A stretch of DNA of 64,000 bases. It comes from an uncultured Candidatus Rokubacteria bacterium (GTDB lineage: Bacteria; Methylomirabilota; Methylomirabilia; Rokubacteriales; CSP1-6). The notes under the pieces were generated by a model. That model did not search any database. It saw only the letters and a program-made list of their open reading frames with translations, and was not told the DNA's origin. The stretch spans positions 1-64,000 of the forward strand of contig CAVVEU010000029.1 of the NCBI GenBank assembly GCA_963747235.1, read 5' to 3'. The translations under genes and the position numbers were made by a program. Below are positions 12,823-49,979 of the stretch, one piece after another; position 1 is the first letter of the stretch; every line of letters begins with the position of its first letter.

Positions 12823-13972
12823 ATGGCGCGCGCGTACAACGTGATCGACGCGGACGGTCACATCCTCGAGCCGCTCGACCTGTGGGACAAGTACATCGAT
12901 CCCGACATTCCGCGAGCGCCGGCCGCGGTTTGTCATCGACGACAACGGCAAGGAACGCCTGAGCGTCGAGGGCAAGCTGCTGGGCAATCCGCGGGGCATC
13001 GGCAGCCTCGGCTCCGTCGGCGTCCGGCAGGGCATCGTCAAGGCCAACACCCTGAAATATGCCGAAGGGCGCAGGGGTGGGTTCGACCCGCACGCGCGCA
13101 TCGTCGACATGGATGCCGACGGCATCGATGCCGCCTTCCTCTATCCCAGCCTCGGCCTGTTCGCCGGCGCCGTCGAGGATCCGGGCCTGGCCGCCGCGAT
13201 GTGCCGCGCCTACAACCGCTGGCTGGCCGACTACTGCACGCCGTATCCCGAGCGCCTGTTCGGGGTCGCGATGCTGCCGATGCAGTCGGTCGATCTGGCG
13301 GTCGACGAGATGCGCTACGCCCGCGAGAAGCTCGGGATGCGCGGCGGGTTCCTGCGGCCCAACCCGTATCACGGCAAGAAGATGATCAGCGACCCGATGT
13401 ACGAGCCGTTCTGGGCGATGGCCGAGGCGCTCGACTTCTCGATCGGCTTTCACGAGGGGTCGACCAACGCGATGCCGACCGTCGGCGTCGACCGTTTCGA
13501 GGAGGACCGCGCGGCGCGCCACATGGTCTCGCACACCATGGAGATGATGCTGGTCGCGCTGAGCGTGATCTGGGGCGGTGTCGTCGACCGTCACCCGCGA
13601 TTGCGCATCGCGTTTCTCGAGTCGGGCGGCGGCTGGATCGCGCCGTGGCTCGACCGCATGGACCGGCACTTCGACGATCAGGGCTTCAACGAGTCGGCGC
13701 CGAAGACGAGGCCGAGCGAGCTGTTCCAGCGCAACTGCTGGATCTCGTTCGAGCCGGTCGAGAGCAGCATCGCGGTGCTGGCCGACTATATCGGTCCGCA
13801 CAAGATCATGTGGGCCACCGACTATCCGCACTCGGACGGCTTCTTCCCGGGCGCGCCGCAGATGCTCCGCGAGCGGCTCGGGCGGCTGTCCCCCGAGGCG
13901 AAGCACCAGGTGCTCGCCGGCGGCGCCCTTGGCTTCTACGGCCTGAGAGCGAGCAATGGCAGCCTCGAATAG
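12823..13972 (+). CDS. Amidohydrolase_2 family protein; indel ~12905
   Basis: VIDADGHILEP, DMDADGID, WATDYPH. Confidence 0.9.
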
Positions 13973-16177: not shown

Positions 16178-17219
16178 ATGGCGTTCGGATGGGGCATCGT
16201 CAGCACCGGCAAGCATCCCGACATCAAGATCGCGCCGGCGATCGCCGCGGCCGACGGCGGCGACCTCGTCGCCGTGTACAGCCGCGATCAGGACCGCGCG
16301 GAGGCGTTCGCGCAGAAGCATGACGCGCGCGCGGCGTACAGTCGGCTCGGCGACCTCCTCAAGGACTCGCGGGTCGACGGCGTCTTCGTGGCCTCGCCGA
16401 ACGCCCTGCATGCCGAGCACGTCGCCCAGGCGGCGGCGGCCGGAAAGCACGTGCTGTGCGAGAAGCCGATGGCCACGACGATCGCCGACGCCGTGCGAAT
16501 GGTGCACGCGTGCCGCCGCGCGGGCGTCACGCTCGGCGTGGCCTTCAACCTGCGCCAGCACCCGGCCTATCAGACGGGCCCGCGAGCTCGTCGCCGCCGG
16601 GGCGCTGGGGCGCATCGTGCTCGCCCAGGCGCAGTGGGCCTTCGGCGTGCGCGGCCGCGACGGCTCACCGCCGCGTACGCCGCTCACGCAGTGGTGGGAC
16701 ACGCCGGAGCTGATCGGGGGCGCGTCCACGATGATGGGCACCGGCGTGCACTCGGTCGACCTGCTGCGCTTCGTGCTCGGCGCCGAGGTGGACGAGATCA
16801 CCGCGGTCACCGACGGCCAGACGGTCGCGCGCCCGCTCGAGCAGCTCGCCTGCCTCACGTTGCGCTTCGACAACGGCACGCTCGGCCAGGTGGTCGCGAG
16901 CCGCCTTCTTCCCGATTCGCGCAACGATTTCCGCGTGTACGGGATCACCGGGCTCATCGCCGGACACCACTCGATGTGGGAAGCGCGCACCGGCCACTTC
17001 GAGACCACGAGCGACACCGTCAACGAGACCGCCGACTACCCGGAAGCGTTGCTGCCGAACTACGTGGCCGAGATCGAGGACTTCCAGCGCGCGGCCGCCA
17101 CCGGCGGCCAGCCCGCCGCGACCGGCCTGGACGGGCTGCGTGTCGTGGAGGTCACGCTGGCGATGATCGAGTCCGCGCGCACGCACCGGAGCGTGAAGAT
17201 CGAGCGCGTCGAGCCTTAG
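16178..17219 (+). CDS. Gfo/Idh/MocA oxidoreductase; indel ~16573
   Basis: GKHVLCEKP, GVHSVD. Confidence 0.88.
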
Positions 17220-17243
17220 CGCCATCACAAACAGGAGACTTCG

Positions 17244-27302: not shown

Positions 27303-27426
27303 AACCAATTCCTGGCGTGAAGTCTGGGTAAACGAAAGGGGTCAGCGGCGTCAACGTCCGCTAACTCCTCGTCCTTCATGGTTGCGGGGGCTGGATTTGA
27401 ACCGGCGACCTTTGGGTTGTGAGCCC
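27303..27426 (-). mobile_element. att scar S1: 3' 48 bp of tRNA-fMet plus terminator/arm module
   Basis: 27379-27426 matches 49903-49950 at 46/48; preceded by the ttcctgg..gtctgggtaaacgaaagggg hairpin module. Confidence 0.9.
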
Positions 27427-29757: not shown

Positions 29758-29828
29758 GAACGCCCCCGTTAGCTGATACGGCGAAATCCTAGCCAGTCAC
29801 CGCGCTCCTGGCAAGCGTCCCGGCCCGA

Positions 29829-29918
29829 TTCCTGGGTGAAGTCTGGGTAAACGAAAGGGGTTAGCGGCTGCTGCGTCCGCTAACCCCTCGTCGTTGATGG
29901 TTGCGGGGGCTGGATTTG
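29829..29918 (-). mobile_element. att scar S2: tRNA 3' 21 bp plus module
   Basis: Near-identical to 49834-49923, then diverges to cagaatgctacac. Confidence 0.9.
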
Positions 29919-30245
29919 CAGAATGCTACACGGAGCCCCGTACGCTCTGGATTGACGTTGTCCCGTAGCCATTTGGGCCTCTCCGACCTTCCTACCGCGC
30001 TTCCAGTGGAGTGGACTGTTCCCGTGGTGCCTTCGGGGAATCGGGGACAAAAGGGGAACGACGCATTGACCACTTGACATCGACGCTCTTTCGGCAAATC
30101 CTTGCGCGGATCTAGCGACTCGCGTGGCATCTGACGTTGATCGGGCGGCTCGGGCCCACGCCAGCGGAACGGCGGTCAGGAGCACAAGCGTCGTGCTTCG
30201 TGTCACAGACGGGAGGAGAACGTGTCTCCATATCGGACATCTCGG

Positions 30246-33447: not shown

Positions 33448-33488
33448 CGCTAACCCTTCGTTGAACCAGCGACCTTTGGGTTATGAGC
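33448..33488 (-). mobile_element. att scar S3 (degenerate)
   Basis: 33461-33488 identical to 49921-49948; preceded by half of the terminator (cgctaaccc); tRNA 3' tip deleted. Confidence 0.8.
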
Positions 33489-33859
33489 ACAAACAGCTAG
33501 ACGATCCCCGTATACCCTCCAGGATCCCCCAACCTGGTCTGCCTGACGGGGAATCGACTACCCGTTCTAGAGGATTCTCAATCGGGCCCCGGCGTACCGC
33601 TTCTCCGTTTTGGGCGCGCGGGAGCAAAACGGGAGCAGTCGCCGTTGCTGCGGGAGGGCGTGGGAGCAAAAAACGGGCTAACCAGGCGGGAAATTACGGA
33701 AACCTCGACGAATTGGGTGAGTTTGCAGACCTTCTGGGGTTGGTGGCGAGCCAGCGCGCGCTCTGGCGCGAGCTCAGCCAGGCGATCAAGGCTTCAGCAG
33801 ACGCGCCAAACCTCGCGTCCCGGTGATCGCAATCATCGCTCATCGGGTCGGTCGGAGGG

Positions 33860-36800
33860 CTACTTGCCGAGGGCTCCGCCGCCGTCGCCGACGAGTATGA
33901 ACGGCGCCCAGAAGAGCGGGTGCGCATAGCTGAACACCGCGCGCTTGCTGCGCTCGTCCTCGTAGACTCCACGGTCGATGAGCGCGTTCAGCGTCTCCTG
34001 GAGGGCCTGCGCCCGCGTGAGGGACTGGTTCTCGTGCTGACGCCGGAACAAGTCCGTGGTGAGCGCCAGCGCCGATCGCGTCTCGACCGGCCAGCTCGTC
34101 ACCAGCAGCGCCCGCGCGCCCGCGTAGAAGAACGCTCGCCCCAGACCCGAGATCGCCTCCGAGCCCGCGCCCCTGGCGCCGGCGGTGTTGCACGCCGAGA
34201 GCACAACCCAGTCGGCGTTCAAGCGGAGCCCCAGGATCTCCTCCATCGTGAGCAGTCCATCGCCGTCCACACCAGCCACGTCCGGCGCAGACAGGGCGAG
34301 CGCCGGCTGCGTGAGCCCGTCGAGATCGCCGGAGACCAGCCCGTGGGTGGCGAAGGCAACCACGCGGTAGCCGGCGAGGTTCACGCTCTTTACCACCTTC
34401 TCGTTGGCTTGGGCCCCGAGGAATACTTCCTTGGTCACGTCGGCGTTCATTGCCAGTGCCAACGACCGGATCTCATCGGCAGTCTCCGGCAACCGGGGCA
34501 GCATCGCCAGCTGGCTGGAATCGATCCCCTCGGTCACCGGGGAGCTTCGCAGTACGATGGGCAACCCTCGGGTCTGGAGTCCCTCGGCACTGGCCATCTG
34601 CCGCGAGGCCTCTTCACGGGCGGCGCGGGCAGCGTGCCGCGGGCTGAACCACGGGTCCCCGAAGCCGATGAAGGGCCGCCGGCTGGGATCAGGCGCAGGC
34701 ATCGATCGCAGCGTCGCCAGCGAGGCCACCGACGGCAGCACCGTCACCGCGTGCGTCCGGACCAGCCAGGGCACCCCCCGATAGTTGGCAAAGAGCAGGT
34801 TCTGCTCCGGCCCGATCGGCGGCGGCTTCGTCGGCAACAGGGCGAACGGCACCTGGCCGAGTACGCCATGTGCAACGACCAGGAGGCTCTGAGCGTCCTT
34901 CCAGCCGGCGGTCACGGGCCCCAGGGCCGCCTGGTAAAGCTGGTGAGCGGTCACGACGTCGAATTCAGGGATGTCGCCGAGTGCCTTGGCTCCGGGGTCG
35001 AGTGCCATTCGGACCTTGTGCACCATCTCGGCCAGCGCTGGCTCGCCGAGCGACGTCGCCCCGAAAGCCACCGGGCCCGAAATCCCGAAGGCCCAGCTGA
35101 AGACACGGTCGTGGGTGACGAATGTCGCAACCAATGCCTCGCCTGGTCGCAACGCCTTCCGGACGGCGTCCACCGTCGCCGGCTTGGGGTTGATCAGCTC
35201 GGCGTAGGCGGGGAACTCACGCTCGAGCTGCCCGAGGAGGGCCTGGCGCGCCTGCCGCAAGAGATCGATCTGCCGGCGGAGGGTGGCGATCACCTTCTGG
35301 TCTTGCTGGTCGTTCGGTGCGCTCAGCACGTTGGCCAGCGCTCCGGCCATCGCACCGAGTTGCTTCTTGGCGTCTTGCTCGCGCCGGACGAGGTCGGCCA
35401 GCGCCGGCGTTCGAGCAGAGGCCCGCGCCGCGCCGGCATCGAGCGCCCGCTGGACTGACTGGCCCCGCGCGACGTCGGCCAGGCGGAAGGCCTCGGCGGC
35501 GACATCGAAGCCCGCTTGGCCCTCGAGCGGCGTCCCCTTGATGTCGGCCAGGAGACCGATGGAGCCGGCGAGGATCATGGTCAGCTGCTGGTCGCGGGCC
35601 GGCCGGCTTGCGGACTCGTCGTCCGTCTCCTGGGTCCGCGTCAACAGAATCGGCGTCGCGTCCTTGAGGTCCCGAAGGGCCCCCGCGCGGTCACCGGCCT
35701 GGGCGAGCGCGATAGCTCGCAAACCGAGGACCTCCGCTGTCATGGGGTCCTTGCCGCCGTAGACGCGGCGGCTCCGCTCGAGTGCCTGATCCAGCACCGG
35801 GATCGCCTCGCCCGGCCGCCCGGTCCTCATGAGCGCCACTGCCCACCCTGAGTTGCCGAGGAGGTGCTTCTCGTAGCCAGCTGGGTCGGCCCGCATGGCC
35901 CGATGGACGGTCCCGTACTCCTGGAGGGCTTCACCCCAGCGCCCCTGCCCCACGAGGGCCTGGGCGAGGTCGGTTCTCGCCACGGCCATGAACAAGGACT
36001 CCTCGCTCGCCTCGCTCTTCTGATAGATATCGAGCGTTACGCGAATCAGGATCTCGGCCTCTGCGAAGCGTCCCTGCTCCGCGATGGTCTGGGCCAGCCT
36101 GCGGACAAGGATCGCAGTGTGAGTGGAGTACCGGCCCCGCCTCCCAAGGGCACTGAGGAGGCCGGTGCGTGCTTCTTTCTCGGCCTCGAGAAGACGACCC
36201 TGTCGTAGCAGCACGGCCGTTACACGGGCGTACGCCAAATCGATCTGGGTGGCCTTGGACGCCTCACTATCGGCGAGCAGCACGTCGATGGACTCCCGCC
36301 ACAAGGCCTCCGCTTTGGCCAGGTGGCCGTTCGCCTCGGCGATCGAGGCGCGAGCCGCCAGCATGTTGCTCTGGTGGAAGGCCCTCGCGGTGGCCCGGAT
36401 GTTTCGCCACCCACGCGACTCCGCTTCCAGCACCTCGAGTCGCCTCAGCACCGCGTTGGCCGCGTCGAGGTCACCCGCCTGCGCATAAAGCCGGACCTGG
36501 AACGCGTACAGATTGAACAGAAGGGCGGGCCGATCCGGCCCGACGGCGGCGATCGCTTGACTGATATAGCTCACCGCCCGACTGACACTTCCCCCCATTG
36601 CCTCGGCGGTTGCCGCGCGGGCGAGGATCTCGTCGTACGCCAGCGGCGTCGAGCCGCCCCGACCGGCCCATTGCAGGCCCTGACGCCAGTCCTCCAGTTC
36701 CTGCTTCTGGCGGCCGACTCACGGTTGGCCAGCGCCCGCTCGACATAGAAGGTGGCGAGGACGCTCGGGTTCGCCGTCTCTGGCGGTTGCTGGTCGACCT

Positions 36801-37015
36801 TGACCCGCGCCGCCTCCACCACCTTCGGGTCGAAGCGCTTCTGCTGGTCTAGAAGCACGGTCGAGATCGTCGATGGTTCGAGGCGGCGGCACGAAGGAGC
36901 TGCCGCTGAAGGAGGCCGTGACCTTCTTGGCTTCCTCGATCGACATCGTCTGGCAGCCGACGAAGACCGGCACCGTCAGGAGCACGACACAGAGCGAACC
37001 GACGAGGCTGTTCAT
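33860..37015 (-). CDS. CHAT-domain (caspase-like) TPR lipoprotein; indels 36.6-36.9 kb
   Basis: Lipobox VFVGC, TPR helices, FATHGL and LSACNT catalytic motifs, HPLFWAPF. Confidence 0.85.
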
Positions 37016-37066
37016 GGCAATCGCCCTACTCATCTACCGGCGGACTCCCAAGCCATCACGATTCTC

Positions 37067-38095
37067 TCAACGAGTCACTAGCACCTTCTTCACCCAGCCA
37101 CTTCCCTTGCTCGTCTCGACGCTCAAGAAGCCGTCTTGCTCCTTGCCCATGGCGATGAGTTCCTCTCCCTTGCCGAGGGTGGCTAGCGCGTCACTCGCCT
37201 CGGACGGCTTGGCGAAAAGCCTGACGTTGCCGATCTTCGGCCGCACCACGTCGCCCTCGTTGAACACGTCGCCACCCTTGGTCCGTTTGCCGGCCTCCTC
37301 GGCCAGTGAGCCGACGCCGCGCTGCAGTGCCGGATCGGCGCGCACAGCCCGGACGATCCCGTTGTAGTTGTCGGCGAAGCTGGCCGCGATGACCTTGCCT
37401 TCGTTCGTGTTCGAGTAGCCGCCGCCGGCGCCGCCGCCGAGCAGCCCGCCAAGACGGAAGTCGGCTTTCTTGGCGCTCCCCTTGGCCGAAGCCACTTGAA
37501 CGGTGGAGCGCGCGTCGGCCAAGAGCATACTGGTCTCCGCCTCCTTGAACTTGAGACCCCCGGCGAGGCCGCCGACAACGCGTCCGCCTGCCCCGAACAG
37601 GCCGCCGATCGTGCCGAGGGCACCGCCTACACCGCCGGCGTCATCTTCGTGGAACACGACTGCAGGCGTCATGATGTAGTCGGCCGTCGCGATCTGGCCC
37701 CCGCCCATGTTGGAGTCCTGCCTCAACTCGCCCGACTTCCCAAGCGCGCGCTCCTGCATCACATTTTGCATGCCGGAGCCGCGCTCAACGACGATGAAGC
37801 AGTTGGACTGCTGCAGCATCAGCCGGATGAGACCAGTCGGAGGTCCGAGGTTGTAGCGGGACAAGGATGCGACGGCGTCCTGGGACTCGACCACCGCTAC
37901 GGTGGCCATCGGTTTCTCGCAGCGCTCGAGGTCGGATGCGGCGCCCTGGGCGCCGCCGGTGCCTGCCGCCCCCTTGACGACGCTGCCGCCCTCGCCCTTC
38001 TTCATGTCGAGGACGCCCTGGGCGCGTGCGTCTACTGCCACGCCGATGGTGACTGCCAGGATGCATGCCGACAACGCACTCCGTGAGATCCCCAT
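37067..38095 (-). CDS. CsgG/HfaB-family protein with C-terminal SH3-like domain
   Basis: Signal peptide, QQSNCFIVVERG, ADY, Gly-zipper, C-terminal GWV. Confidence 0.75.
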   Translation of the reverse strand: MGISRSALSACILAVTIGVAVDARAQGVLDMKKGEGGSVVKGAAGTGGAQGAASDLERCEKPMATVAVVESQDAVASLSRYNLGPPTGLIRLMLQQSNCFIVVERGSGMQNVMQERALGKSGELRQDSNMGGGQIATADYIMTPAVVFHEDDAGGVGGALGTIGGLFGAGGRVVGGLAGGLKFKEAETSMLLADARSTVQVASAKGSAKKADFRLGGLLGGGAGGGYSNTNEGKVIAASFADNYNGIVRAVRADPALQRGVGSLAEEAGKRTKGGDVFNEGDVVRPKIGNVRLFAKPSEASDALATLGKGEELIAMGKEQDGFLSVETSKGSGWVKKVLVTR

Positions 38096-38716
38096 ACGAC
38101 TATTCCCCCTTGCGGCCCAACTAGCACGCGCGGCCAAGCGAAGCCGCCGAACTAGCACGTCGCCGGTCTAACCCTGCGACCTCTTCGGCTCGTCGGGTTA
38201 TCGCTCTGCCGCCTCGGACGATCCCGCGATCGTTCGGTCAATGGGTCTATCGCTGATGTCCCACAGACAAAGTTGGACTCACCACACCATCGTGAGGCAC
38301 AGTCGGATTTCCTCGGTATGGGACCTAGGGCCAATGTCTGTGGTCAGCCAGTCGCGGGCACAGCGGGACCAGCTTCTTCGAAACCACTGGATCCGCCAAG
38401 TTCTCCGTTGGCGGTTGATTTGCAATGTTCGGTGCGTGTGCCCAGCCCCTCCCAAGGCGTCGCGCAGCAGACGGACCGTGTCGCTCCTATGCCAAGCGAC
38501 ACTCGGATATCACGACCCCGTCAGAGAATTCAGAAGGCAACTTCAGACGTCGACAGGCCGCTGGTACAACCCGGCGTACATTCGCCTCGTGAATGACGCC
38601 AGGGCCGTGGCGGTTCCAGAGAACGCTGGCACTACCTGTGAGGTTCGGGTGCCTGTGTTGCATCAGCCAGCGTCTGGCGAAGCAGGCTCTGTCGCGATCG
38701 TCGGTGTGGGTAACGC

Positions 38717-38793
38717 CTGGGTAAACGAAAAGGGGTTAGCGGCTTCAATGTCCGCTAACCCCCCGTCTTCAATGGTTGCGGGGGCTGGATTTG
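38717..38793 (-). mobile_element. att scar S4: tRNA 3' 21 bp plus module
   Basis: ctgggtaaacgaaaaggggttagcgg..ccgctaacccc, tggttgcgggggctggatttg, then cagaatgctacac as in S2. Confidence 0.9.
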
Positions 38794-39009
38794 CAGAATG
38801 CTACACGGCTCCTGAAGCGTTCTGGGTCGATCTCCGGCAGCGGGCGGTTGGTGGCCCGGCAACCGAAAGCCCTCCGTGAGGGAGACAATGCCTCTGAGCG
38901 GTCTGGCAACCGCCTGATGGAATGGGCCACGGGCTCTCCGCCGTGCCGTCTGCCTATTCCCGCCCGGGTCTGTTAGACTCGCGCCCACCACTCGGGAGAT
39001 GACACGCTG

Positions 39010-39995
39010 ATGGATCGTCGGAGCTTCGTCGCCACCCTGGCAGGCGGCCTCCTCGCCGCGCCGCTCGCCGCGGAGGCGCAGCAGGCGGGGAAGGTCTACC
39101 GGATCGGTTTCCTCGGGAACTCCACCGCCGCCCTCGAGGCCAATCTCGTCGGGCCGTTCCGCGAGGGCTTGCGGGACCTCGGCTACGTCGAGGGTCGAAC
39201 CTCGTCATCGAGTATCGGTGGGCCGAGGGAAAGTACGAGCGCTTTCCCCGCTCGTGGCTCGAGCTCGTCGCCCTCAAGGTGGATGTGATCGTCACCGCCG
39301 GAACGCCCGCCGCCCTAGCCGTCAAGCAGGCGACGACGACGGTCCCCATCGTCATGGCGGCCGTGGGCGATCCCGTCGGCACCGGCCTCGTCGCGAGCCT
39401 CGCCCGGCCCGGCGGGAACCTCACGGGACTGGCGTCGATCTCGCCGGACCTGGAGGGGAAGCGGTTGGAGCTGCTCAGGGAGCTCGTCCCGAAGCTCTCC
39501 CGCGTGGCCTTCCTCGTGAATCCCGCCAATGCACTCCACACGGTCTCGGAGAAGCACGCGCGCGAGGCGGCCACCGTGCTGCGCCTGAAGCTGCAGTTTG
39601 TGGGCGTGCAGTCGGAGGTGGAGTTCGATCACGCATTCGAGACCATCGCCAGAGAGCGGCCGGGCGCCATGGTGGTGCTTGCAGACCGCGCTCTTCCTGC
39701 ACCACCGGAGCGCATCGTTGACTTTGCCGCGCGGCACCGTCTGCCGACGGTCTATCCGTACAGCGGAGCTGGCAGAGGCTGGGGGCCTGATGTGCCTTTG
39801 GCCCGAGCTATCCCGACATGCACCGGCGCGCCGCCGCCTACGTGGACAAGATCCTGAAGGGCGCCAAGCCCGCTGACCTCCCCGTCCAGCAGCCCACCAA
39901 GTTCGAGCTCGTCATCAACCTCAAGACCGCCAAGGCCCTCGGCCTGACGATCCCGTCGACGCTGCTCGCAGCGGGCGGATCAGGTGATCGAGTAA
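39010..39995 (+). CDS. ABC substrate-binding protein (ABC_sub_bind/TrpX-like) copy 1; several indels
   Basis: MDRRSF.. signal, [31 protein letters not shown]. Confidence 0.85.
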
Positions 39996-40108
39996 TGGAT
40001 CGGCGCATCTTCCTCGGCACGTTGGCGAGCGGCCTCCTTGCCGCGCCTCTCGGCGCGGAGGCGCAGCCGGCGGCCAAAGTTTACCCGATCGGTTCCTCGG
40101 AAACTCGA
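39995..40108 (+). pseudogene. SBP 5' stub
   Basis: [32 protein letters not shown](F)LGNS, ends at att scar S5. Confidence 0.8.
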
Positions 40109-40130
40109 TGGTTGCGGGGGTCCGCAACCA
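40109..40130 (-). mobile_element. att scar S5: tRNA 3' 12 bp, palindromic
   Basis: TGGTTGCGG-gggt-CCGCAACCA; first 12 nt identical to 49903-49914. Confidence 0.65.
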
Positions 40131-40296
40131 CCTGCAGGCAAACCACCGATCGATCGCATTCCGCTTCGAGATTCAAGCTTCAGACTACACTCTCGAAAGT
40201 GCTCGCAGCGACCGCGCCTATATGCCTGTGCCGTAAAATCCGTCGGCTCGCCAAACACATCCCCGAATCTCCGAAAACAACTCTGCAGCAAATCAT

Positions 40297-40620
40297 TCAG
40301 CGCATCGCGGTCTCCCTCCTCGAAGGCGCTTGTGAGCAGTCGAAAACATTCGACATAATCGTCTGCCATTCGCCGCCCACTCGGTAAGCCTCTGGCACCT
40401 CATTCGGCCCCTTCCTCATGGCGCGCCAAGCATCGATCAAGCGACCGAGAAGCTCTGCTGGGATAGGTTCCTTCAGGCGATGTTCTTGCAGCCCCTTTTC
40501 CACTTGCACCATCGTGCCATACTGATCCTCCATGTACTTGTTGACAAAGTAACCTGACACGGCCGTTTCCGGTCTTTTACGGCGAAGGAGGCGCCTCAGA
40601 TGCCCCCTAATGGGCCGCAT
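40297..40620 (-). CDS. Hypothetical protein, possibly a frameshifted or truncated gene
   Basis: Lower-GC ORF with plausible composition; no family confidently recognised. Confidence 0.35.
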
Positions 40621-40757
40621 GCTGAATATTTGGCACCTCGGCCAGAATCGGGGCGTGGCATAGAGGCGCCCGCGGCGTCAGAACCGAGGCTCGTGCCCAC
40701 GACGGCCACCTCGGCACCTCCTACGGCGCGGTGCACTGACGATCTCCGGAGGCCCCA

Positions 40758-42948
40758 ATGAACCGGTGCATGTTCAGGACGATGACTCTGTGGTGCCTTC
40801 TCGCCGCACGACGTTGGTTGGACTTCCGCATACAGATCACGGTACCGCAAACGCTCGGTCTCACGTTGCTGCTCGTTGCTGCCTTTGTGCTGCGATCTGA
40901 GACGCTCTTTACCTTCACAGAGGCAGCACCGTTCTTCGTCCTTGCCTTTCTCTCCATCGTGCCTTTGGGCGGCGCGATCGTACAAGTCTTGTTGCCGGAC
41001 GTTCAGGGTCGAGCCGAGCGGGCCGCCCTTATCGCGATAACCGGCTATGCGAGCTCGGTAACATTCGGCTTTCTGCTCGGCGCCATCGGAATACAGTGGG
41101 TGTACTTCCCCCTGTGTCTGGGCGCGCTCCTTCTGTGGCTGACCCAGATCTATCTGCGGGCGCCCGCCGAAGGCGGACCGCTCCGACGGATCACCTCCCT
41201 AACCCCGTTTGGCAGTGTCTGGAGTTCCCAGGGGCCATGGCTCGTCGGGATCATCGCTCTTCTGAGCGTCCTGGTGACCATGCCGTTGTTAGCACCGCGT
41301 GTCCGCGTGACGAACGATCTCATGCATGACTACTCCTTCATCGACCAGCACTATCACCTGACACACGCGGTGATGTTCATATACGGGGCGCCCATGCGGA
41401 TATGGCCCGCTTTGGCGGGAACGCAGCCCCTCGTGTATCCGGATTTCCACAATTTTTGGATGGGACAACTTGCGGCATGGAGTCATGCAGATATCGACAG
41501 CATCTTTTACGTCTATGCGCCAATCGCCATGATCGCTTTGAACACGCTTCTGCTCTACGCGTTTGGCAAGAGTGTGACCGGCTCCCCGTGGGGAGGGTGT
41601 ATCGGCGCCGGTCTGGGGTACCTTCTCTTTGTGCCCAATCCGTATGAGCCGAACATTTTCTTGAGCGATGTCGAGGGCCCGCCCTGGATACTCGCGCGAA
41701 CCCACTTTCTCGAACTGGCCTCCGGCGCTGTCTATGGAGTTGGATGGCAGCTGCTGACGGGCGTGGCACTATGCGTGTCGTTTATCGTTTCCAAACAGAC
41801 GTTTCGAACCCAGGTCGGTGCGCTTACCGTGGCGGCCATCCTTCTGACCTCGTTGGTGCGTATTCGACCGCACTACTTCGTTGCCACAGCGCCGCCATTT
41901 TTCATCCTGATTGCCTGGCTGCTCCACAAGCGGCTGGACGTACGGCTTCTGTTGCCGGTGGGAGTATTCGCCCTATTGTTCGGCGCAGTCTTCCTGGAGA
42001 GCACGAGCCGACACTACAATACGTCAACTCTCGATCTGGGGCTCGCATACGGGCCGGAAGGCGACCTCCTCATCAAGTACTACCTACCCCAGACGTTTGT
42101 CAGATGGGTAGTACGTTTGCCTGTGTTCATCGTGCCGATTGCCGCGATCTGTCTCTACATTCTGATTCGCCTCAGTGGGACCGCCATCGTGCTCATCCTT
42201 GCCTATGGCCTCTGTCAGGTATTGCGGAAAACATGGCGGCCTGGTCCGGTAGACCACTATCTGTGGGCTGTTCTGGTCTTCACCATTGCGGCATCGGCTG
42301 TAATCGTAAAGCCAGACTTTGTGGATGTAGGCGGAAACTGGGGAACTCAAGCACTGTTCATCGTACCGCGCATCGTGCTTCTACTTGCAGTGGTGCCGCT
42401 GTATGAACTTCTGCGCCGGCTCTACCGAACCTCTCCGTGGCTACAAGTCCACTCACGTCACTTCGCGTTGGCCAGTCTGCTCTTGTTCTCGGTCGTTGCC
42501 TACCGGGGCGCAAGTGCCACGCTTCACCAACAGGCCAGTCGAGCCTACCCCTCAAGTGCACACGAACTCAGCGTCTACAACTGGATCAGGGCGAACACAT
42601 CTGTTGATACGGTCGTCGCGGCGAATCCGGCGCATGTGGTCAATCCCCGAGGGGAAACGATTCGCGACACACATTTTCTCGGGGCGATGACCCATCGTCC
42701 GGTTTATTTGGAAAAGAGGAGTACCCCAATTCCTTGCACGCCGCGGAGGTGTCTAAGCGTCGAGACACGCTCCAGCAACTCTTCGCAGCAACCACCCCCG
42801 CTCTGGTTCGTCAGGTGGTAAGCAGGAGCAATATTGACCTGATCCTCATCTATCCCGACACACCTACGATGGTCGACCTTTCCTGTTGTATGAAGTTGGT
42901 CTATGGCGACACTCTGAAAGTCTACGAAGTGTTGCACACGGATCGATG
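40758..42948 (+). CDS. Polytopic membrane protein, GT-C/surface-glycan-modification-like; indel ~42730
   Basis: Many TM segments, soluble C-terminal domain (WIRANT..D.VV); visibly lower GC. Confidence 0.55.
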
Positions 42949-42970
42949 ACGTTCGACCGCGGCCATCGTC

Positions 42971-44022
42971 TGGACCTGCTCCCCGAACACTCCGCCACGG
43001 GGGTGGTGACGATTCGGCTTAGGATCCCCGCGGGGAGGCCCCGCGATGCGTCGGAAACGGTTCACGGAAGAGCAGATCATCGGGATCCTGAAGCGTCTGG
43101 TCGCGGATCTCACGCGGGATAGACGGAGTTGGTCAGAAAAAAGGCCTGACGCCCGCGGCGCAGCGGATCGCGGTGCGGGCGATGCAGGCGAGCTCCGGGT
43201 GGAGTGAGCGCCGGGCGTGCGGCCTGGGGAGCACGGACCGCTCCACGTGCCGGTACCAGGCGCGGCGCGTGGACTGGCCGGCGCTGCGCGAGCGGCTGCG
43301 CGGACTGGCCGCCAAGCGCCGTCGCTTTGGCTATCGCCGGCTCTATGTCCTCCTCCGGCGAGAGGGGTATCGCGTGAATCTCTAGCGGGTCTACGCCTGT
43401 ATCGCGAGGAGGGGTTCGCGGTGCGGCGCCGCCGTCGCCAGCGCCGCGTCGCCCGCGGGACGCCGCCGGCCGTGCCGACTCGGATCAACGCGCGCTGGTC
43501 GCTGGACTTCTTGCTCGACACTCTGGAGGGTGGCCGCCGCGTGCGGCTCCTGGCCGTGGTCGATGACTTCACGCGGAACTGCTTGGCGCTCGAAGTGGAC
43601 ACGTCGATCGGCGGGCGCCGGGTCGTCAAGGTGCTCCAGCGGCTCGTCGAGACGCGCGGGACACCGGCGGTGCTCATCACGGACAATGGGCCCGAGTTCG
43701 CCGGCCGAACGCTCGATGCGTGAGCCTACGCGCAGGGGATCCGGCTGCACTTCATCGAGCCCGGCAAGCCAAACCAGAATGCCTACATTAAGAGCTTCAA
43801 CGGCCGGTTCCGTGACGAGTGCTCAACGAGCACTGATTCCTCAGCCTGGCTCAGACGCGCCAGATCGTCGAGGCCTGGCGCCTGGACTACAATGCGGTCC
43901 GGCCGCATAGCTCCCTGGGGCAGATTCCCCCTCGGGAGTTCGTGGCCGCGTGGCAGTTAACCCGGGCCGCACGAGGCGCAATCCTCAACCTCGAAACGGT
44001 CTAGTTTTCGGGGGCAGGTCCA
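42971..44022 (+). mobile_element. Degenerate IS3-family element
   Basis: IRs tggacctgctccccgaacact / agttttcgggggcaggtcca; deleted orfA (RFTEEQIIGILK); orfB WSLDF, TDNGPEF, FNGRFRDEC with internal stops. Confidence 0.9.
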
Positions 44023-44471
44023 CCGAGCGCGATTGGAGGAGAGTCGGGGAGCAGGTCGTCATGACCAAGCTGGAACGGCTGGATGCGTTGCTGCGGCAGG
44101 GCGAAGTCGGCGGCATCCTCGGGCATGGGCTCTCCTGCACTGTCGGTAAGCATATCGCTTGCTCGGCCTCCTCCTAATGCGCCAATTCCCACCCGCGCGC
44201 GGCCACGCGCTAGCCGGGTGGGGTTGCTGGCCTCGGCCCACCAATTCGGCTACGATAACCGCGCTATGGAGCGCGCCGAGCAGCTACCGTGGCGGCCCGG
44301 CGGACGGGGGGGCAGACGTGGCGGCGCAGCACTGCCCGAACCGGAGAGGCCTGAACGTGTTTGCGGGCCCCTCTGCCGCTGATGCAGCTGCCGCCCCGTC
44401 CCCCCGCGCCGCCAGTGAGTTAGGGCTCCTCAGGTTGACTCCAGCAGCCTACACCCGAAAAGGAGCGAACA

Positions 44472-44735
44472 GTGCGTTGGACGGTCACCATCAAGGACCA
44501 AACATATGGCGTTCACACCGAAGTCAACGCGTATGAATGTCGAGTGACCCGATCAGGGGGCGAGGTCAGGTTGAGCGTTCAAAATGTGAAGCCGGGCGGT
44601 CTGAGGGAGGGTCGTTTCTTGATGCCGTCGGACGTTGCCCGACAATTGGGGAGCGCACTGCTCCTCGCTTGCGCCGGAGAGAGCGAGCGTATCGACATCG
44701 TCTTCTCCGCTGAGGAGCCGAAGGCCAAACGATGA
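44472..44735 (+). CDS. Small hypothetical protein
   Basis: AAGGAG RBS, 87 aa, globular composition. Confidence 0.55.
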   Translation: MRWTVTIKDQTYGVHTEVNAYECRVTRSGGEVRLSVQNVKPGGLREGRFLMPSDVARQLGSALLLACAGESERIDIVFSAEEPKAKR

Positions 44736-44770
44736 ATCGGGCAAAGACAGAGCGCCCCGGGCGCTTCTGC

Positions 44771-44827
44771 CTCGGCCTGACGATCCCGCCGTCGCTGCTG
44801 CTGCGGGCGGATCAGGTGATCGAGTGA
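44771..44827 (+). repeat. Isolated SBP 3' tail
   Basis: Encodes LGLTIPPSLLLRADQVIE* with no SBP body upstream. Confidence 0.9.
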
Positions 44828-45804
44828 TGAACCGTCGGACGTTCTTCTGCACCCTGGCGGGCGGCCTCCTCGCCGCGCCGCTCGCCGCCGGGGCGCAGCC
44901 GGCGGGCAAGGTGTGGCGGATCGGGTATCTGACAGGTAGTTCTGTGGGTGCCCTCGATGCATTCAAGCAGGTGCTGGGTGAGCACGGGTATGTTGAGGGA
45001 CGAAACATCGCGATTGAGATCAGGTCTGCTGAGGGAAGAGTTGAGCGGCTTTCCACCCTTGCCGCCGAATTGGCTAACATCAATGTCGATGTGTTCCTGG
45101 TGACCGTCAACAGAGTAGCCCTGGCCGTGCGGGAGGTAGCTCCGAAGACCCCTATCGTGATGACGCGTGCCGAGGAGCCAGTTCGCCTTGGGCTCGTCAA
45201 GAGTCTTGCCAGGCCGGGCGGCAACATCACGGGGATCGCGATCGTGGCCGGCCCGGAGATCTATGGTAAGAACTTGAAGTTGCTGAAGGCGGTCCTTCCC
45301 GGGAGGGCGCGCATCGCGGCTCTCTTCAATACCACGTCTTCCGTCAACGCACTCTGGTTGAAGGCCACTGAAGAGGCGGCTGGCAAGCTGGGGGTGAGGC
45401 TTGTGCCGATCGGAGTCCGCAATCCGGAGGACTTCGAGCAGGCATTTGCGCTGATGAAGCAAGCGGAGGCGACCGGGTTTGTCGTCCTCGGCGAGCCGCT
45501 CTTCTTTGGCCCCAACAGCCGGCTGGTCAACGATCTAGCACTGCGGAGTGGACTGGCTTCCATGTGGCCTCTTCGAGCTGGCATAGACGCAGGTGGCCTG
45601 ATGTCTTACGGCATTCCGGTGCCCGATTCCTATCGTAGCGCGGCAGCCTACGTCGTTAAGGTTCTTCGGGGTGCCCAACCCGGTGACTTGGCGATGGAGC
45701 AGCCGACTAAGTTCGAGCTGGTCATCAACCTCAAGACCGCCAAGGCCCTCGGCCTGACGATCCCGCCGTCGATTCTGCAGCGGGCGGATCAGGTGATCGA
45801 GTAG
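44827..45804 (+). CDS. ABC substrate-binding protein copy 2
   Basis: [24 protein letters not shown]. Confidence 0.9.
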   Translation: MNRRTFFCTLAGGLLAAPLAAGAQPAGKVWRIGYLTGSSVGALDAFKQVLGEHGYVEGRNIAIEIRSAEGRVERLSTLAAELANINVDVFLVTVNRVALAVREVAPKTPIVMTRAEEPVRLGLVKSLARPGGNITGIAIVAGPEIYGKNLKLLKAVLPGRARIAALFNTTSSVNALWLKATEEAAGKLGVRLVPIGVRNPEDFEQAFALMKQAEATGFVVLGEPLFFGPNSRLVNDLALRSGLASMWPLRAGIDAGGLMSYGIPVPDSYRSAAAYVVKVLRGAQPGDLAMEQPTKFELVINLKTAKALGLTIPPSILQRADQVIE

Positions 45805-46784
45805 TGGATCGGCGCCGCTTCCTGCTGACCTCGATGGGCGGGGCCCTCGCGGTGCCGCTCGCCGCCGGGGCGCAGCCGGCCGGGAAGGTTCCCCGCGTTG
45901 GCTTTCTGCTCGGTCTCTCGCCCGGGCCTTCGCGAGAAGTGGACGCCTTCCAGCGAGGGCTACGCGAACTCGGGTACATCGAGGGCCAGAACATTGCGAT
46001 CGACTATCGCTACGCACGCGGGCAAGTCGAGCGTCTTCCCGAGCTTGCCGCCGAGTTGGTGCGCCTGAACCCTGACGTCATCGTCGCCCCCTATACGCCT
46101 CCCGCTCTGGCGGCCAAGCGCGCAACCAGCATGATCCCGATCGTCTTCGCCGTCGTTGCCGATGCGGTTGGCGCCGGACTCATCACCAACCTCGGGCGGC
46201 CCGGTGGGAACATCACGGGATTGACGAGCACCAGTGCCGAGCTGGGCGGCAAACGCTTGGAACTCCTCAAGCAAGTGATCTCCAAGGCCGCTCGCGTGGC
46301 GGTTCTCTACAATCCCGCCGATCAGTCCAATGTGCTGATCTTGAAGCAGCTCCAAGAGTCAGCGCCGAACCTGGGTCTCACCCTGCAACCGCTCACGATA
46401 CGTGAACCGGGCGACTTCGAGGGCGCTTTTTCCGCGATGGCCCGAGAACGCACACATGCGATGTTCGGCGCCCCCGGTGTTTTGACGTTCGAGCATAAGG
46501 AGGTTCTCGTAGGCCTCGCCGCCAAGCGTCGGCTACCGGCGATGTGGGGCCATCGCCAGTTCGTCGACGCTGGCGGCCTCATGTCCTACGCCGTGAACTT
46601 TTACGACCAGATCCGACAGACCGCCGCTTACGTGGACAAGATCCTCAAAGGCGCCAAGCCCGCCGACCTCCCTGTCGAGCAGCCCACGAAGTTCGAGCTC
46701 GTCATCAACCTCAAGACTTCGAAGGCGCTCGGCCTGACGATCCCTCAGTCGCTGTTGCTGCGGGCGGATCAGGTGATTGAGTGA
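45804..46784 (+). CDS. ABC substrate-binding protein copy 3
   Basis: Same motifs; TAGTG overlap. Confidence 0.92.
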   Translation: MDRRRFLLTSMGGALAVPLAAGAQPAGKVPRVGFLLGLSPGPSREVDAFQRGLRELGYIEGQNIAIDYRYARGQVERLPELAAELVRLNPDVIVAPYTPPALAAKRATSMIPIVFAVVADAVGAGLITNLGRPGGNITGLTSTSAELGGKRLELLKQVISKAARVAVLYNPADQSNVLILKQLQESAPNLGLTLQPLTIREPGDFEGAFSAMARERTHAMFGAPGVLTFEHKEVLVGLAAKRRLPAMWGHRQFVDAGGLMSYAVNFYDQIRQTAAYVDKILKGAKPADLPVEQPTKFELVINLKTSKALGLTIPQSLLLRADQVIE

Positions 46785-47755
46785 TGGACCGGCGGACGTT
46801 CATCGGCGTTATCACTGGCAGCCTCCTCGTCGCGCCGCTCGCCGCCGAGGGGCAGCCGGGGACAATACGCCGCATAGGCGTTCTATCCCCTGCCTCGCCT
46901 GGGCCTTCCCCCTTGCTCAGCGCGTTCCAGCAAGGACTCCAAGAGCTCGGCTACGTTGAGGGACAAGACATTCGCCTGGAGTATCGATTCGCTGAGACGA
47001 GGCTCGAACGGCTGCCCGGCCTCGCCGCCGAACTGGTCGGTCTCAAAGTCGATGTCATCCTTGCGATCAATAGCACAGCCGCTCAGGCTGCCCTGAAAGC
47101 CACCAAGACAATCCCCATTGTCTTTACGTGGGTTGCCGACCCTCTTAGTCTCGTGTCGAATCTCGCGCGGCCGGGCGGGAACGTTACGGGGCTGACCACC
47201 ATGACCACCGAGCTGAGTGGGAAACGCTTGCAACTATTTAAGGATGTTCTCCCCGGCATTCCCCGCATAGCCGTCCTCTGGAATTCGGCCAATCCGGTGG
47301 CCACTCTGGTCTTCAGAGAGATGGAAGGCGCAAGCGCGCGGCTCGGTGTTCAGCTTTACTCCATGGCCGTGCGCAGTTCCACCGAGTTCCAAGACGCGTT
47401 CAAGGCGGCGGCGCGGGCACGCGCGAGCGCGCTCTTCGTGATCGAGGAGGGAACGCTCTTTCCACACCGAGCGCGCATCCTGAGTTTGGCGGCACAGCAT
47501 CGCATGCCAGCGGCGTCCCAGTTCAGAGACTTTGCGGAGGCGGGGGGCCTGCTGAGCTACGGGCCGAACCTCTCCGACTTGTTCCGGCGCGCCGCCATCT
47601 ATGTGGACAAGATCCTCAAGGGAACCAAACCCGGCGACCTCCCGGTCGAGCGGCCCGAGAAGTTCGAGCTGGTCATCAACCTCAAAACCGCCAAGGCCCT
47701 CGGCCTGACGATCCCGCCGTCGCTCCTCCAGCGGGCGGATCAGGTGATCGAGTGA
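46784..47755 (+). CDS. ABC substrate-binding protein copy 4
   Basis: Same motifs; TGATG overlap. Confidence 0.92.
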   Translation: MDRRTFIGVITGSLLVAPLAAEGQPGTIRRIGVLSPASPGPSPLLSAFQQGLQELGYVEGQDIRLEYRFAETRLERLPGLAAELVGLKVDVILAINSTAAQAALKATKTIPIVFTWVADPLSLVSNLARPGGNVTGLTTMTTELSGKRLQLFKDVLPGIPRIAVLWNSANPVATLVFREMEGASARLGVQLYSMAVRSSTEFQDAFKAAARARASALFVIEEGTLFPHRARILSLAAQHRMPAASQFRDFAEAGGLLSYGPNLSDLFRRAAIYVDKILKGTKPGDLPVERPEKFELVINLKTAKALGLTIPPSLLQRADQVIE

Positions 47756-47860
47756 AGATCCGCCCAATCTTCACCGGCAACTCCCTTCTCGCCGCGTCAC
47801 TAGTGGGCTAAGGGCAGAATAGGCTCGCTCCCGTGCGATGGGGGCTATAGGAGATCCGCG

Positions 47861-48814
47861 ATGACGAACAGACGGGCGTTCCTGCTAGGCGCTGGTGCCT
47901 TGGTGTCTGATGCTTTCGTTCCGATCGGAGCGCGGGCTCTCGCGCAGGTCACCGGGAGTCCTCCGCGCTCGAAGACGCGCCTGATTCTCCTCGGCACCGG
48001 TGGCGGGCCCCGACCGCGCAAGAGCGTGATGTCAACCGCGCAGGTGATCGTGGCCAACGACGTCCCATACGTCATCGACTGCGCCAATGGTGTCGGCCGG
48101 CAGCTCGTGCTGGCTGGTGTGCCGCTCGCCAAGATCCGCCATGTGTTTATCACCCACCACCATTCCGACCACAATGCCGACTATGGCACCCTCCTGCTGC
48201 TCGCGTGGGCCAGTGGGCTGCGGACGCGCGTTGACACGTGGGGTCCGCCGCCGCTCGAGAAGATTACGCGGCTCTTCTTCGAGATGAGTGCACCGGACAT
48301 CGATGTGCGTATCGTCGACGAGGGGCGAGTGCCGCTGGTGCCCCTGATCCATCCGCACGAGCTGACACAGAATGGATTGGTGTGGCAGGACGACAACGTC
48401 AAGGTGACCGCGGCGATTGTCGAGCATCCTCTGGTGCCGACCGCCTTCGCGTACCGGTTCGACGGCCCCGACCGGTCCATCGTCATCTCAGGCGACACGC
48501 ATCGCTCGGACAATCTAGTGAAGCTCGCGCAGGGCGCCGACGTGCTGGTGCATGAGGCTATGTGGGTGCCGGGCGTCGATCGCCTGGTGGGCGCAAACCC
48601 CAACGCCACGACGCTGAAGAAACACATCATCGACAGTCACACGCCTGTGGAAGAAGTCGGCCAAGTAGCGACCGCCGCGGGCGTGAAGACGCTCGTGCTG
48701 TCGCACTTAGTGCCGGCGGACGATGAGCGGCTTACGGATCAGATGTGGATCGATCTGGCCGCCGCGTACTTCAAGGGACGCATTGTTGTCGCCAAGGACT
48801 TGATGGAGATTTGA
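47861..48814 (+). CDS. Tat-exported MBL-fold hydrolase (RNase Z/arylsulfatase-like)
   Basis: NRRAFL, LGTGGGP, THHHSDH, SGDT, LVHEA, LSHLVP. Confidence 0.88.
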   Translation: MTNRRAFLLGAGALVSDAFVPIGARALAQVTGSPPRSKTRLILLGTGGGPRPRKSVMSTAQVIVANDVPYVIDCANGVGRQLVLAGVPLAKIRHVFITHHHSDHNADYGTLLLLAWASGLRTRVDTWGPPPLEKITRLFFEMSAPDIDVRIVDEGRVPLVPLIHPHELTQNGLVWQDDNVKVTAAIVEHPLVPTAFAYRFDGPDRSIVISGDTHRSDNLVKLAQGADVLVHEAMWVPGVDRLVGANPNATTLKKHIIDSHTPVEEVGQVATAAGVKTLVLSHLVPADDERLTDQMWIDLAAAYFKGRIVVAKDLMEI

Positions 48815-49038
48815 CCGCGCCCGGCGCTTCATTCCGCTCGTAGATCTCCAGATAGTTCAGGGTCACCCGGCGGTGCTGGGCGAGCCGTGCGGGGGAACCG
48901 CCTCCGCAATGACGAACGTGCTCATAGCGACTCCTTGGCCGTACTGAGCAGGGCCGCAGTTCGGTGGCACTGAGCTGCTCCGCGAAGTGTTCTTGAAGTT
49001 TTCTCTTGCTCGCTTCAGGCGGGTGCGGTAGGCGCCCA

Positions 49039-49746
49039 GCCAGCCGCCACAAGTCGGAGTTCCTGGCCAACATGAGCCACGAGCTCCGCACGCCACTCAA
49101 CGCGATCATCGGGTTCTCGGAAGTGCTCGCGGAGAAGATGTTCGGGGACGTCAATGCCAAGCAGGCGGAATACCTGCAGGATATTCTCGAGTCGGGGCGG
49201 CATCTCCTGTCCCTCATCAACGATATCCTCGATCTCTCGAAGATCGAGGCAGGACACATGGAGCTGGAGCCGGCGGACTTCGATCTGTCGGGGACCATCG
49301 ACAACGCGCTGACTCTGGTACGGGAGCGCGCCACCCGGCGCGGCATCACGCTGGGCAGCACCATCGACGACCGCCTGCGGATAATCTGCGGTGACGAGCG
49401 GAAGGTGAAGCAGGTCCTCTTGAATCTCCTCTCCAACGCGTTGAAGTTCACGCCCGAAGGGGGACGGATCGACGTCAGCGCCGCCCTGCGCGACAGCCTG
49501 GCGGAGGTGTCCGTAGCGGATACGGGCATCGGCATCGCGTCGGGTGATCAGGAGGCCGTCTTCGAGGAGTTTCGGCAGGTGGGCGCCGCGGAGCGGAAAG
49601 CGGAAGGCACTGGGCTCGGGCTGGCGCTCTCCCGGAAGTTCGTCGAGCTCCATGGCGGCAGGATCTGGGTGCGGAGCGAGCTCGGCCACGGCTCGACCTT
49701 CACCTTCACCTTCCCGGTCGGGTCTGGGCTGACGAGCCAAGCATGA
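49039..49746 (+). pseudogene. Histidine kinase HisKA+HATPase fragment without sensor
   Basis: KSEFLANMSHELRTPLN, NLLSNALKFT, DTGIG, GTGLGL; no credible N-terminus. Confidence 0.8.
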
Positions 49747-49793
49747 CGATCCCGCCTTTGCTCCTCCAGCGGGCCGACCAGGTGATCGATTAG
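49744..49793 (+). repeat. Isolated SBP 3' tail
   Basis: tgacgatcccgcctttgctcctccagcgggccgaccaggtgatcgattag. Confidence 0.85.
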
Positions 49794-49854
49794 CCCGTGG
49801 CGTCACGTGCAGGAGCCAGGTCGACAAAACCAATTCCTGGGTGAAGTCTGGGTA

Positions 49855-49892
49855 AACGAAAGGGGTTAGCGGCTGCTGCGTCCGCTAACCCC
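49855..49892 (-). terminator. Intrinsic terminator after tRNA-fMet
   Basis: ggggttagcgg/ccgctaacccc 11-bp stem followed by tttcgttt on the minus strand. Confidence 0.8.
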
Positions 49893-49902
49893 TCGTCGTC
49901 AA

Positions 49903-49979
<77 letters not shown>

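Follow-up and report, generated by a model that had tools for sequence, protein, structure and literature searches.

A tandem array of PF04392 binding-protein genes with conserved ends in a Rokubacteria genome: a candidate case of homology-anchored cassette exchange

Introduction

Recombination at conserved blocks is a familiar route to variation in surface antigens and toxin tips, and gene-conversion cassettes or orphan modules are known from pilE/pilS, vlsE, the 3' ends of trypanosome variant surface glycoprotein (VSG) genes and the orphan toxin tips of CDI/Rhs systems. Here we describe a tandem array of genes for substrate-binding proteins (SBPs) of the family PF04392 (ABC_sub_bind) at positions 39010-49793 of a 64,000-nucleotide stretch of DNA (the window) from an uncultured Candidatus Rokubacteria bacterium. 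The window is the first 64 kb of the 262-kb contig C29 of a metagenome-assembled genome (MAG; 5.57 Mb, GC ~0.71, labelled G000) that is 88% complete with 4.9% contamination; all genomes compared with it are also MAGs, and the comparison is made at species level. We use head for the 5' block of these genes, which encodes a putative twin-arginine-type signal peptide, and tail for their 3' block.

How does such an array compare with the described systems in which gene bodies are exchanged? With integrons it shares co-oriented, gene-sized units, constant boundaries, unrelated cargo and, in some lineages, toxin-antitoxin-like pairs; unlike an integron, it is without an integrase, a folded attC-like site or a fixed crossover point, and its boundaries are the resident family's own coding sequence. 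Gene-conversion cassette systems resemble it in that conserved blocks flank a variable body and supply homology for replacement, and in that displaced partial copies remain, but the PF04392 array does not have a single expression site fed by silent copies, and its units are complete genes. In contrast to orphan modules of the CDI/Rhs type, PF04392 orphans consist of the constant part only, unrelated genes are captured, and the array shows no evident tie to immune evasion or competition. A further parallel is homology-facilitated illegitimate recombination, which combines one homologous anchor with an illegitimate join and serves the uptake of foreign DNA in transformable bacteria such as Acinetobacter and pneumococcus. 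The likeness lies in the product, in which foreign DNA meets a resident tail or head at just one of its two sides, as where a DctP gene copy of the relative G013 abuts a truncated integrase; the difference is that the process is postulated here, that the anchors measure 18-45 nt and that donor and recipient may be two arrays of a single genome.

The array also recalls expanded families of orphan binding proteins, of which Bug/TctC, without adjacent transporters, is an example. A profile search of G000 gives 39 matches to PF04392, ~24 of them full length, and these many paralogs are mostly without a neighbouring permease. To our knowledge, descriptions of Bug/TctC and other orphan binding proteins report no constant DNA ends, overlapping junctions, orphan ends or captured cargo, and a full-text literature search found no description of constant-end PF04392 arrays. 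According to one published account, the three solved PF04392 proteins have aromatic amino acids as ligands (PMC10443332).

The reading that we favour, with a probability of roughly 0.6, is homologous recombination anchored in the conserved ends, accompanied by illegitimate joining and by erosion within a tRNA-Met island series. As a case of homology-anchored cassette exchange in a multigene family, this reading is partly supported by the evidence given below.

Results

Slot turnover and captured genes in relatives

Comparison with relatives provides the strongest evidence. The right flank of the tRNA-Met gene that closes the array region (49903-49979, - strand; ARAGORN) and anchors the island series is 86-95% identical in at least 15 genomes of the same genus. 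SBP1 (44827-45804, + strand; E=4.7e-33), the first intact gene of the array, has orthologs that are 89-91% identical in three congeners (G013, G004 and G003), and its neighbours differ in all four genomes. The slot after SBP1 is occupied in the window by SBP2 (45804-46784, +; E=5.4e-55), which SBP3 follows (46784-47755, +; E=1.2e-50). In G004 the same slot holds a different SBP gene and then the tRNA, and the tail of that gene is the ortholog (92%) of a tail that stands as an orphan in the window at 49744; genome G014 has an orphan tail with the same 5' edge. In G013 the slot holds an intact open reading frame (ORF) of 341 aa in which a PF04392 head is in frame with a complete DctP/TRAP domain (E=4.2e-66); its stop is separated by 25 nt from an orphan tail, and this tail overlaps the next SBP start. 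The slot of G003 contains a second such chimeric ORF, of 344 aa, its PF04392 head (E=3.7e-10 with the DNA profile) being in frame with Amidohydro_2 (E=4.2e-9).

Does the head on the G013 DctP gene belong to the DctP family itself? Among 14 outside DctP homologs that were read, 8 are N-complete, and all 8 carry other signal peptides before the common mature start YK.EFKM; 4 of these are 64-78% identical (P0002, P0007, P0066 and P0081), and only the signal peptide of P0002 is partly head-like. In G000, 29 of 29 protein-level head matches lie in PF04392 genes, 28 of them in frame with the body, and for this reason a generic signal peptide as the source of the head is rejected for this genome. Because homologs carry other signal peptides and the G000 head matches are confined to PF04392 genes, the head on the G013 DctP was swapped in.

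An alternative to exchange is plain decay with a functional floor, such that an array dying in a junk-rich island is worn by random indels until only the tail serving the next gene is left, with the ends kept by protein and translation constraints. We regard this account as unlikely. It agrees with the many broken copies (6 of 31 G000 tails stand on frameshifted or partial bodies) and with an IS3 remnant with stops in the window's cargo, but not with the two in-frame head-cargo fusions, which are intact ORFs.

Further cases of captured genes are found on contig C14 of G013, which carries two arrays, each just downstream of a gene for a GAF-domain histidine kinase. The non-SBP slots of these arrays hold a SAM-methyltransferase gene with a head stub on one side and a tail on the other, a cytochrome P460 gene with a head on one side and the last third of an SBP gene on the other, and a second DctP copy. 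Head stubs, orphan tails and internally deleted genes also occur in G008, G002 and G005. The junction search in five further congeners scored 40 candidates per genome, and its counts are lower bounds. That array order would vary among relatives had been expected in an earlier note on this DNA, and the order does differ among the congeners.

Exchange between arrays and recombination anchors

Two segments of G013 C14 are duplicated between its arrays, 13572-14625 against 40280-39227 at 98.6% identity and 16410-17770 against 42930-41571 at 96.0%. The left end of one lies 37 nt into a head and that of the other in the conserved 3' block of an SBP gene, and on the right each segment stops where a tail ends, so that 4 of 4 ends fall in head or tail blocks, a placement that plain decay leaves unaccounted for. 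One of the duplicated segments has a tail that abuts a truncated tyrosine recombinase gene, and this abutment is an illegitimate join. The recombinase ORF without its N-terminal part (L106 1936-2364; G013:C14:38933-39364) starts at the end of the tail after the second DctP copy, and another truncated integrase is found at G013:C14:23590-24084.

The longest exact matches between paralogs measure 18-45 nt in the tail/head junction blocks versus 10-17 nt in the interiors. A length of 18-45 nt is in the range of the minimum for RecA-type recombination in E. coli. Since heads and tails are the only blocks with exact paralog identity of 18-45 nt, they would serve as the homology patches for ordinary RecA-type recombination.

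Conservation and composition of the ends

Are the ends conserved at the DNA level beyond what the protein requires? Codon identity was scored at identical-residue positions in a codon alignment of 24 G000 paralogs, against an expectation based on codon usage in those genes. For interior columns the observed/expected ratio is 1.05-1.09 at any level of amino-acid conservation, including the 43 columns that are at least 80% conserved (GC content at third codon positions, GC3, 0.81), whereas tails reach 1.30-1.38 (GC3 0.89-0.93) and heads 1.27-1.35. Within the three intact array genes the ratio is 1.61 in the tails and 1.86 in the heads, compared with 0.99 in the interiors, and the interior silent sites are saturated (0.99-1.09). 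Amino-acid conservation as the source of the silent-site excess is ruled out by the equally conserved interior columns that are without it, which also argues against plain decay. The synonymous-identity comparison proposed in the earlier note therefore bears out its expectation, with both ends exceeding the interiors, as does its description of conserved ends around interiors that are AT-richer at third positions: GC3 in the window is 0.92-0.96 for heads, 0.70-0.76 for interiors and 0.87-0.95 for tails. Tail GC3 exceeds interior GC3 in nearly every taxon. A recent foreign origin of the low-GC3 interiors is disfavoured by this gap in most taxa together with the SBP1 orthologs at 89-91% in three congeners.

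The 24 full-length genes of G000 fall into two apparent classes by interior GC3: all 12 genes at or below 0.78 have window-like tails (nhmmer E <=3e-10), and of the 6 genes at or above 0.93, 4 are without a window-like tail and 2 have a weak one only, a split that partly reflects subfamily and is drawn with a tail profile built from the window copies.

Part of the silent-site conservation of tails has a direct source, because tail codons carry the Shine-Dalgarno sequence for the overlapping next gene. The tail holds AGGTGATC, the exact complement of GAUCACCU in the 3' end of the G000 16S RNA, 5 nt before the next start, and the codons for Q-V-I in the tail, CAGGTGATC, contain it. The tail motif itself is family-wide, in that 584 of 595 pattern matches in the species collection are confirmed relatives from many phyla, and the same tail codons recur at the same positions across phyla (214 tails, 80 loci). 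Both the Shine-Dalgarno sequence in the tail and this family-wide conservation are as plain decay would have them. The fixed codons, for example ACG at one Thr, ACC at another, CCG, GCG and GTG, are common to Rokubacteria, Binatia and Delta-, Beta- and Alphaproteobacteria (80 loci, L024-L103). Overlapping stop/start junctions are mainly a feature of Rokubacteria, being found at 18 of 47 tails versus 0 of 48 in deltaproteobacteria and 0 of 25 in Binatia.

Tail copies, orphans and their edges

The 25-nt tail core GCGGGCGGATCAGGTGATCGAGTRA is present in the window in five copies at no more than one mismatch, ending at 39995, 44827, 45804, 46784 and 47755, and none is expected (100 shuffles). A sixth copy had also been reported, and it is indeed present in diverged form: the tail ending at 49793 has >3 mismatches from the core and is detected by profile and BLAST only, with 83-90% identity to the other tails over 49-53 nt and an nhmmer E of 2.2e-15. 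When the six window tails are used as a DNA profile, G000 yields 31 tails, of which 20 stand on full-length bodies, 6 on frameshifted or partial bodies and 5 on none (44762 and 49719 in the window, C29:248323, C17:125665 and C5:102249). Orphans, on the genome-wide count that the earlier note had proposed, are thus not rare.

The 5' edges of orphan tails lie about 41, 45, 50, 50, 54, 60, 75, ~95 and >110 nt before the stop and crowd at GGCCTGACGATCC; one edge is common to G000 and G014, whose DNA upstream of it is unrelated, and the TGACGA found there is also the start of C17:125665. Among the remnants that keep a 3' end, as listed by hand curation, 15 of 23 retain <=90 nt versus ~6% expected under uniform break points (binomial 1.5e-13), and 7 of 9 that have no SBP gene after them are short, or 7 of 10 when L058a, which belongs to the long class, is included. 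Orphans immediately upstream of a head (44768, C29:248323, L076, L097, L111 and the G013 DctP slot) are in keeping with plain decay, but the 7 short orphans with no SBP gene after them are not.

Do these edges mark a dedicated site? A site-specific, integron-like cassette system acting at the tail/head junction, with its recombinase encoded elsewhere, would fit the co-oriented units, which look like promoterless cassettes, the cargo of unrelated function between constant ends, the crowding of orphan edges at a single sequence and the toxin-antitoxin-like pairs in some slots, for which chromosomal integrons offer a parallel. We consider such a system very improbable. The tyrosine-recombinase family PF00589, to which integron integrases belong, has no match on contig C29 against 5 in the genome, and what integrase sequence there is near the G013 arrays is truncated. 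In folding, tail DNA does not surpass its shuffles: seven tail-region folds, examined for an attC-like structure, have z values of -1.54 to +0.61, and 16-144 of 200 shuffles fold equally well. The orphan edges are spread from ~-41 to beyond -110, and the left edges of swapped segments vary as well, at 37, ~72 and ~85-105 nt into the head. The likening of the array to an integron in the earlier note fails on these same grounds, namely no tyrosine recombinase on the 262-kb contig, no hairpin, and junctions ~41 to >110 nt before the stop.

Tandem PF04392 arrays of up to 15 or more genes occur in several phyla. Outside the genus, 219 tails could be evaluated (13 more lie too near a locus edge), with 208 on full genes, 4 on partial genes and 7 as orphans. 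A Syntrophobacter array has PIN/AF2212-like pairs in two slots, and one deltaproteobacterial slot has an aspartyl-protease/DUF5678 pair.

Anatomy of the array in the window

The features of the array at 39010-49793 are all on the + strand, tandem and co-oriented. Its three intact genes score 115, 187 and 173 bits against PF04392 (curated cut-off 25.9 bits), and the SBP1, SBP2 and SBP3 junctions overlap the next gene by one base (TGATG or TAGTG). Four full paralogs had been claimed; the remaining one, at 39010-39995 (+, 986 nt), is frameshifted, with head and tail intact, a body in three frames and matches that include one TGA, and is either a pseudogene or a gene carrying assembly indels. It is 79% identical to C13:185764-186743. 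The single 5' stub was correctly recognized: a head at 39995-~40106 (+; nhmmer 39995-40094, E=5.1e-23), 82% identical to 39010-39122, starts in overlap with the previous stop, encodes a twin-arginine-type signal peptide and then breaks off.

The first cargo block (40121-44767, 4.6 kb) has a lower GC of 0.54-0.64 outside its insertion sequence and contains a 687-aa ORF of no known family (40758-42821), an IS3-type transposase remnant (42973-44003; rve domain E=1.4e-14, stops in frame) and an 87-aa ORF without a family match (44472-44735). Searches of Pfam, NCBIfam and PADLOC gave 0 matches for the ORFs 40758-42821, 39983-40369(-), 40300-40620(-), 44472-44735 and 38241-38879. The 687-aa ORF has a GC3 of 0.68 and a T-rich coding strand, and shows no DNA match among the matches listed in 30 relatives. 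Both tails said to stand without an SBP body are confirmed as such, one at 44768-44827 after the 87-aa ORF and one at 49744-49793 after a kinase fragment with HisKA and HATPase_c domains. The first (+, 60 nt; nhmmer E=6.8e-17) gives the next gene AGGTGATC and an overlapping stop/start, and in G013 the orthologous stretch forms the 3' end of an SBP body that is full though frameshifted. The second (+; nhmmer 49719-49792) is diverged and lies beside the tRNA-Met terminator.

To the right of SBP3, a possible degenerate head remnant lies at 47756-47815 (+; local alignment to heads 16 versus 11.5 +/- 1.7 for shuffled sequence, with 10 of 500 shuffles reaching 16), the first 10 nt of which pair with the tail to form a 9-bp hairpin. 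The second cargo block follows with an MBL-fold hydrolase gene with its own RR-type N-terminus (47861-48814, +; Lactamase_B_2 E=6.8e-13, all NCBIfam matches below cut-offs) and the C-terminal histidine kinase fragment of 246 residues (49006-49746, +). The fragment is 87% identical to G013 L010 2911-3589, part of an 818-aa kinase with three GAF domains, and this full-length relative stands directly upstream of an SBP array. The kinases that precede both G013 C14 arrays (L010 1261-3717; L106 14690-17647) have response regulators nearby, and SBP arrays beside kinases may be signalling inputs rather than transport parts. The earlier note's statement that no permease is present is borne out for PF02653, which has 0 matches in the window against 99 in the genome, the nearest at C29:76766; no ABC ATPase family was included in the search, and not every ORF of the window was scanned. 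The stretch 33860-38158, immediately to the left of the array segment, has genes for a CHAT-TPR protein of 912 aa and for an SH3-containing, CsgG-like lipoprotein.

A gene-sized copy of SBP3 (46790-47755 of the window) is found at C5:100335-101300 at 90% identity, with wholly unrelated flanks, which means either that a slot was copied elsewhere in the genome or that the bin contains a second strain. Contig C5 of G000 also has a second array with overlapping junctions. Could the joins be artefacts of assembly or binning, with chimeras formed at repeated tails? The genome is a MAG with 4.9% contamination, its tails are identical over up to 45 nt, and the C5 copy could indeed derive from a second strain. 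Nevertheless, each orphan tail is its own sequence variant, the 49744 tail and the tRNA flank recur in G004 and G014, the G013 slots lie within a 674-kb contig where the two copies differ by 1.4-4%, and the same patterns occur in independent assemblies; an artefact is therefore extremely improbable.

A series of tRNA-Met islands

The 13-nt core of the tRNA-Met 3' end occurs in five copies in the window (27378, 29897, 38772, 40108 and 49902) versus 0 expected, and four of the five sit in 87-124-nt repeats of the tRNA end and its terminator, which leads to the conclusion that the array is part of a tRNA-Met island series. On the left, the array segment is delimited by an att-like partial copy of the tRNA-Met 3' end and downstream terminator (38707-38808; 88-89% identical to 49838-49923), which contains the 13-mer ATGGTTGCGGGGG at 38772-38784, so that direct repeats of the tRNA 3' end bound the segment. 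Copies of the tRNA end and terminator at 27303-27426, 29825-29933, 33461-33499, 38707-38808 and 49828-49950 (88-97% identical) split 27-50 kb into segments, and this region looks as it might after serial island integration.

One copy of the core (40108-40120), with its inverted complement after it, lies at the exact end of the head stub. On its left side the first cargo block has its edge at this tRNA-Met att-core copy and not at a head-specific site, which counts against the integron comparison. The palindrome at 40108-40131, GGTTGCGG GGGT CCGCAACC, falls exactly at the break of the head stub and may be an att-att or inversion scar; the head-stub junction itself may be an att-type scar.

Did island mechanics alone then make the window's junctions, by serial integration and excision of tRNA-Met-targeting elements and recombination between att copies, with the SBP ends as passengers? 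The five core copies and the repeats at four of them, the stub that ends at the 40108 copy, the lower GC and GC3 across 40100-49800 than in the flanks, and the divergence of relatives left of ~49830 are all in line with this idea. We judge it improbable, because it leaves unexplained the right edges inside tails and the head/tail-bounded slots of G013, G003 and G008, which are not at this tRNA, and because an integrase is found neither on the contig nor among the 16 window ORFs scanned (22.9-56.6 kb), the rve remnant of IS3 type alone being detected.

Discussion

How could an array of ordinary genes come to trade its slots? Homologous recombination anchored in the conserved ends would proceed as follows. 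Every unit carries the same twin-arginine-type signal-peptide head block and the same ~75-nt tail block, the latter encoding the family-wide C-terminal motif and, in this lineage, supplying a Shine-Dalgarno sequence and a stop that overlaps the next start. The events at work would be unequal crossover inside one array, gene conversion from array to array, and a one-sided homologous join paired with an illegitimate one, and their outcome would be a slot-wise turnover of bodies and the capture of unrelated genes, sometimes fused to a head in frame, with head stubs and orphan tails as scars. Erosion of a dead gene would halt at the tail for as long as translation of the next gene needs it. The two cargo blocks of the window would have originated by the same pathway.

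The observation reported in the earlier note is partly confirmed: it is real, with the corrections given above. Its interpretation of the tail/head junction as a recombination anchor that shuffles interiors and captures cargo survives the refuting conditions set in that note and is partly supported, chiefly in relatives, by head/tail-bounded cargo and by the four duplication ends in head or tail blocks, and is weakened by the fact that much of the end conservation is family-wide.

Several points weigh against homology-anchored exchange at this locus. Because tail codons recur across phyla, the conservation of the ends at the DNA level is partly a family-wide constraint rather than local homogenisation, and local conversion is therefore not the whole story. 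Tail identity is 0.757 within G000, 0.899 within the G013 arrays and 0.821 between them (permutation p=0.999), so that the test for genome-specific tail homogenisation is negative, in samples that are not comparable and with cross-phylum codon conservation as a confounder. Beyond the genus, few tails are orphans (7, with 4 partial, among 219 that could be evaluated). Because a tRNA-Met att-core copy stands at the very end of the head stub, island integration or att-att recombination is indicated for that junction. No recombination event has been observed in the window's lineage, and the case rests on species-level comparison of MAGs. Among public sequencing runs, none contained more than 0.23 of the words sampled. 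Break points inside the conserved blocks are unresolvable because all paralogs align there. Finally, the remnant counts, being hand-curated, are open to detection bias, and frameshift calls in MAGs may include assembly errors.

A bolder extension of homology-anchored exchange, which we put forward tentatively and ourselves find rather doubtful, treats head and tail as a socket that works without an integrase. Any inserted body would gain the ribosome-binding site of the preceding tail and, when in frame, a twin-arginine-type export signal; whole slots would be tradeable within and between genomes by ordinary homologous recombination, since the socket sequences are common to all arrays, including those on tRNA-targeting islands. 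The arrays would then form a selectable platform that assembles periplasmic binding proteins and enzymes, and the silent sites of the tail would be kept for compatibility with the socket. The cross-phylum conservation of those silent sites is a separate puzzle and may point to a function at the RNA or DNA level.

Exchange of this kind would be a concrete, testable case of cassette-like gene flow without an integrase. It would capture unrelated periplasmic proteins through an in-frame fusion to a resident export signal, and it might explain why orphan binding-protein families are so large in soil bacteria. In these ways it would shape which nutrients or signals a soil phylum, widespread and uncultivated, is able to sense.

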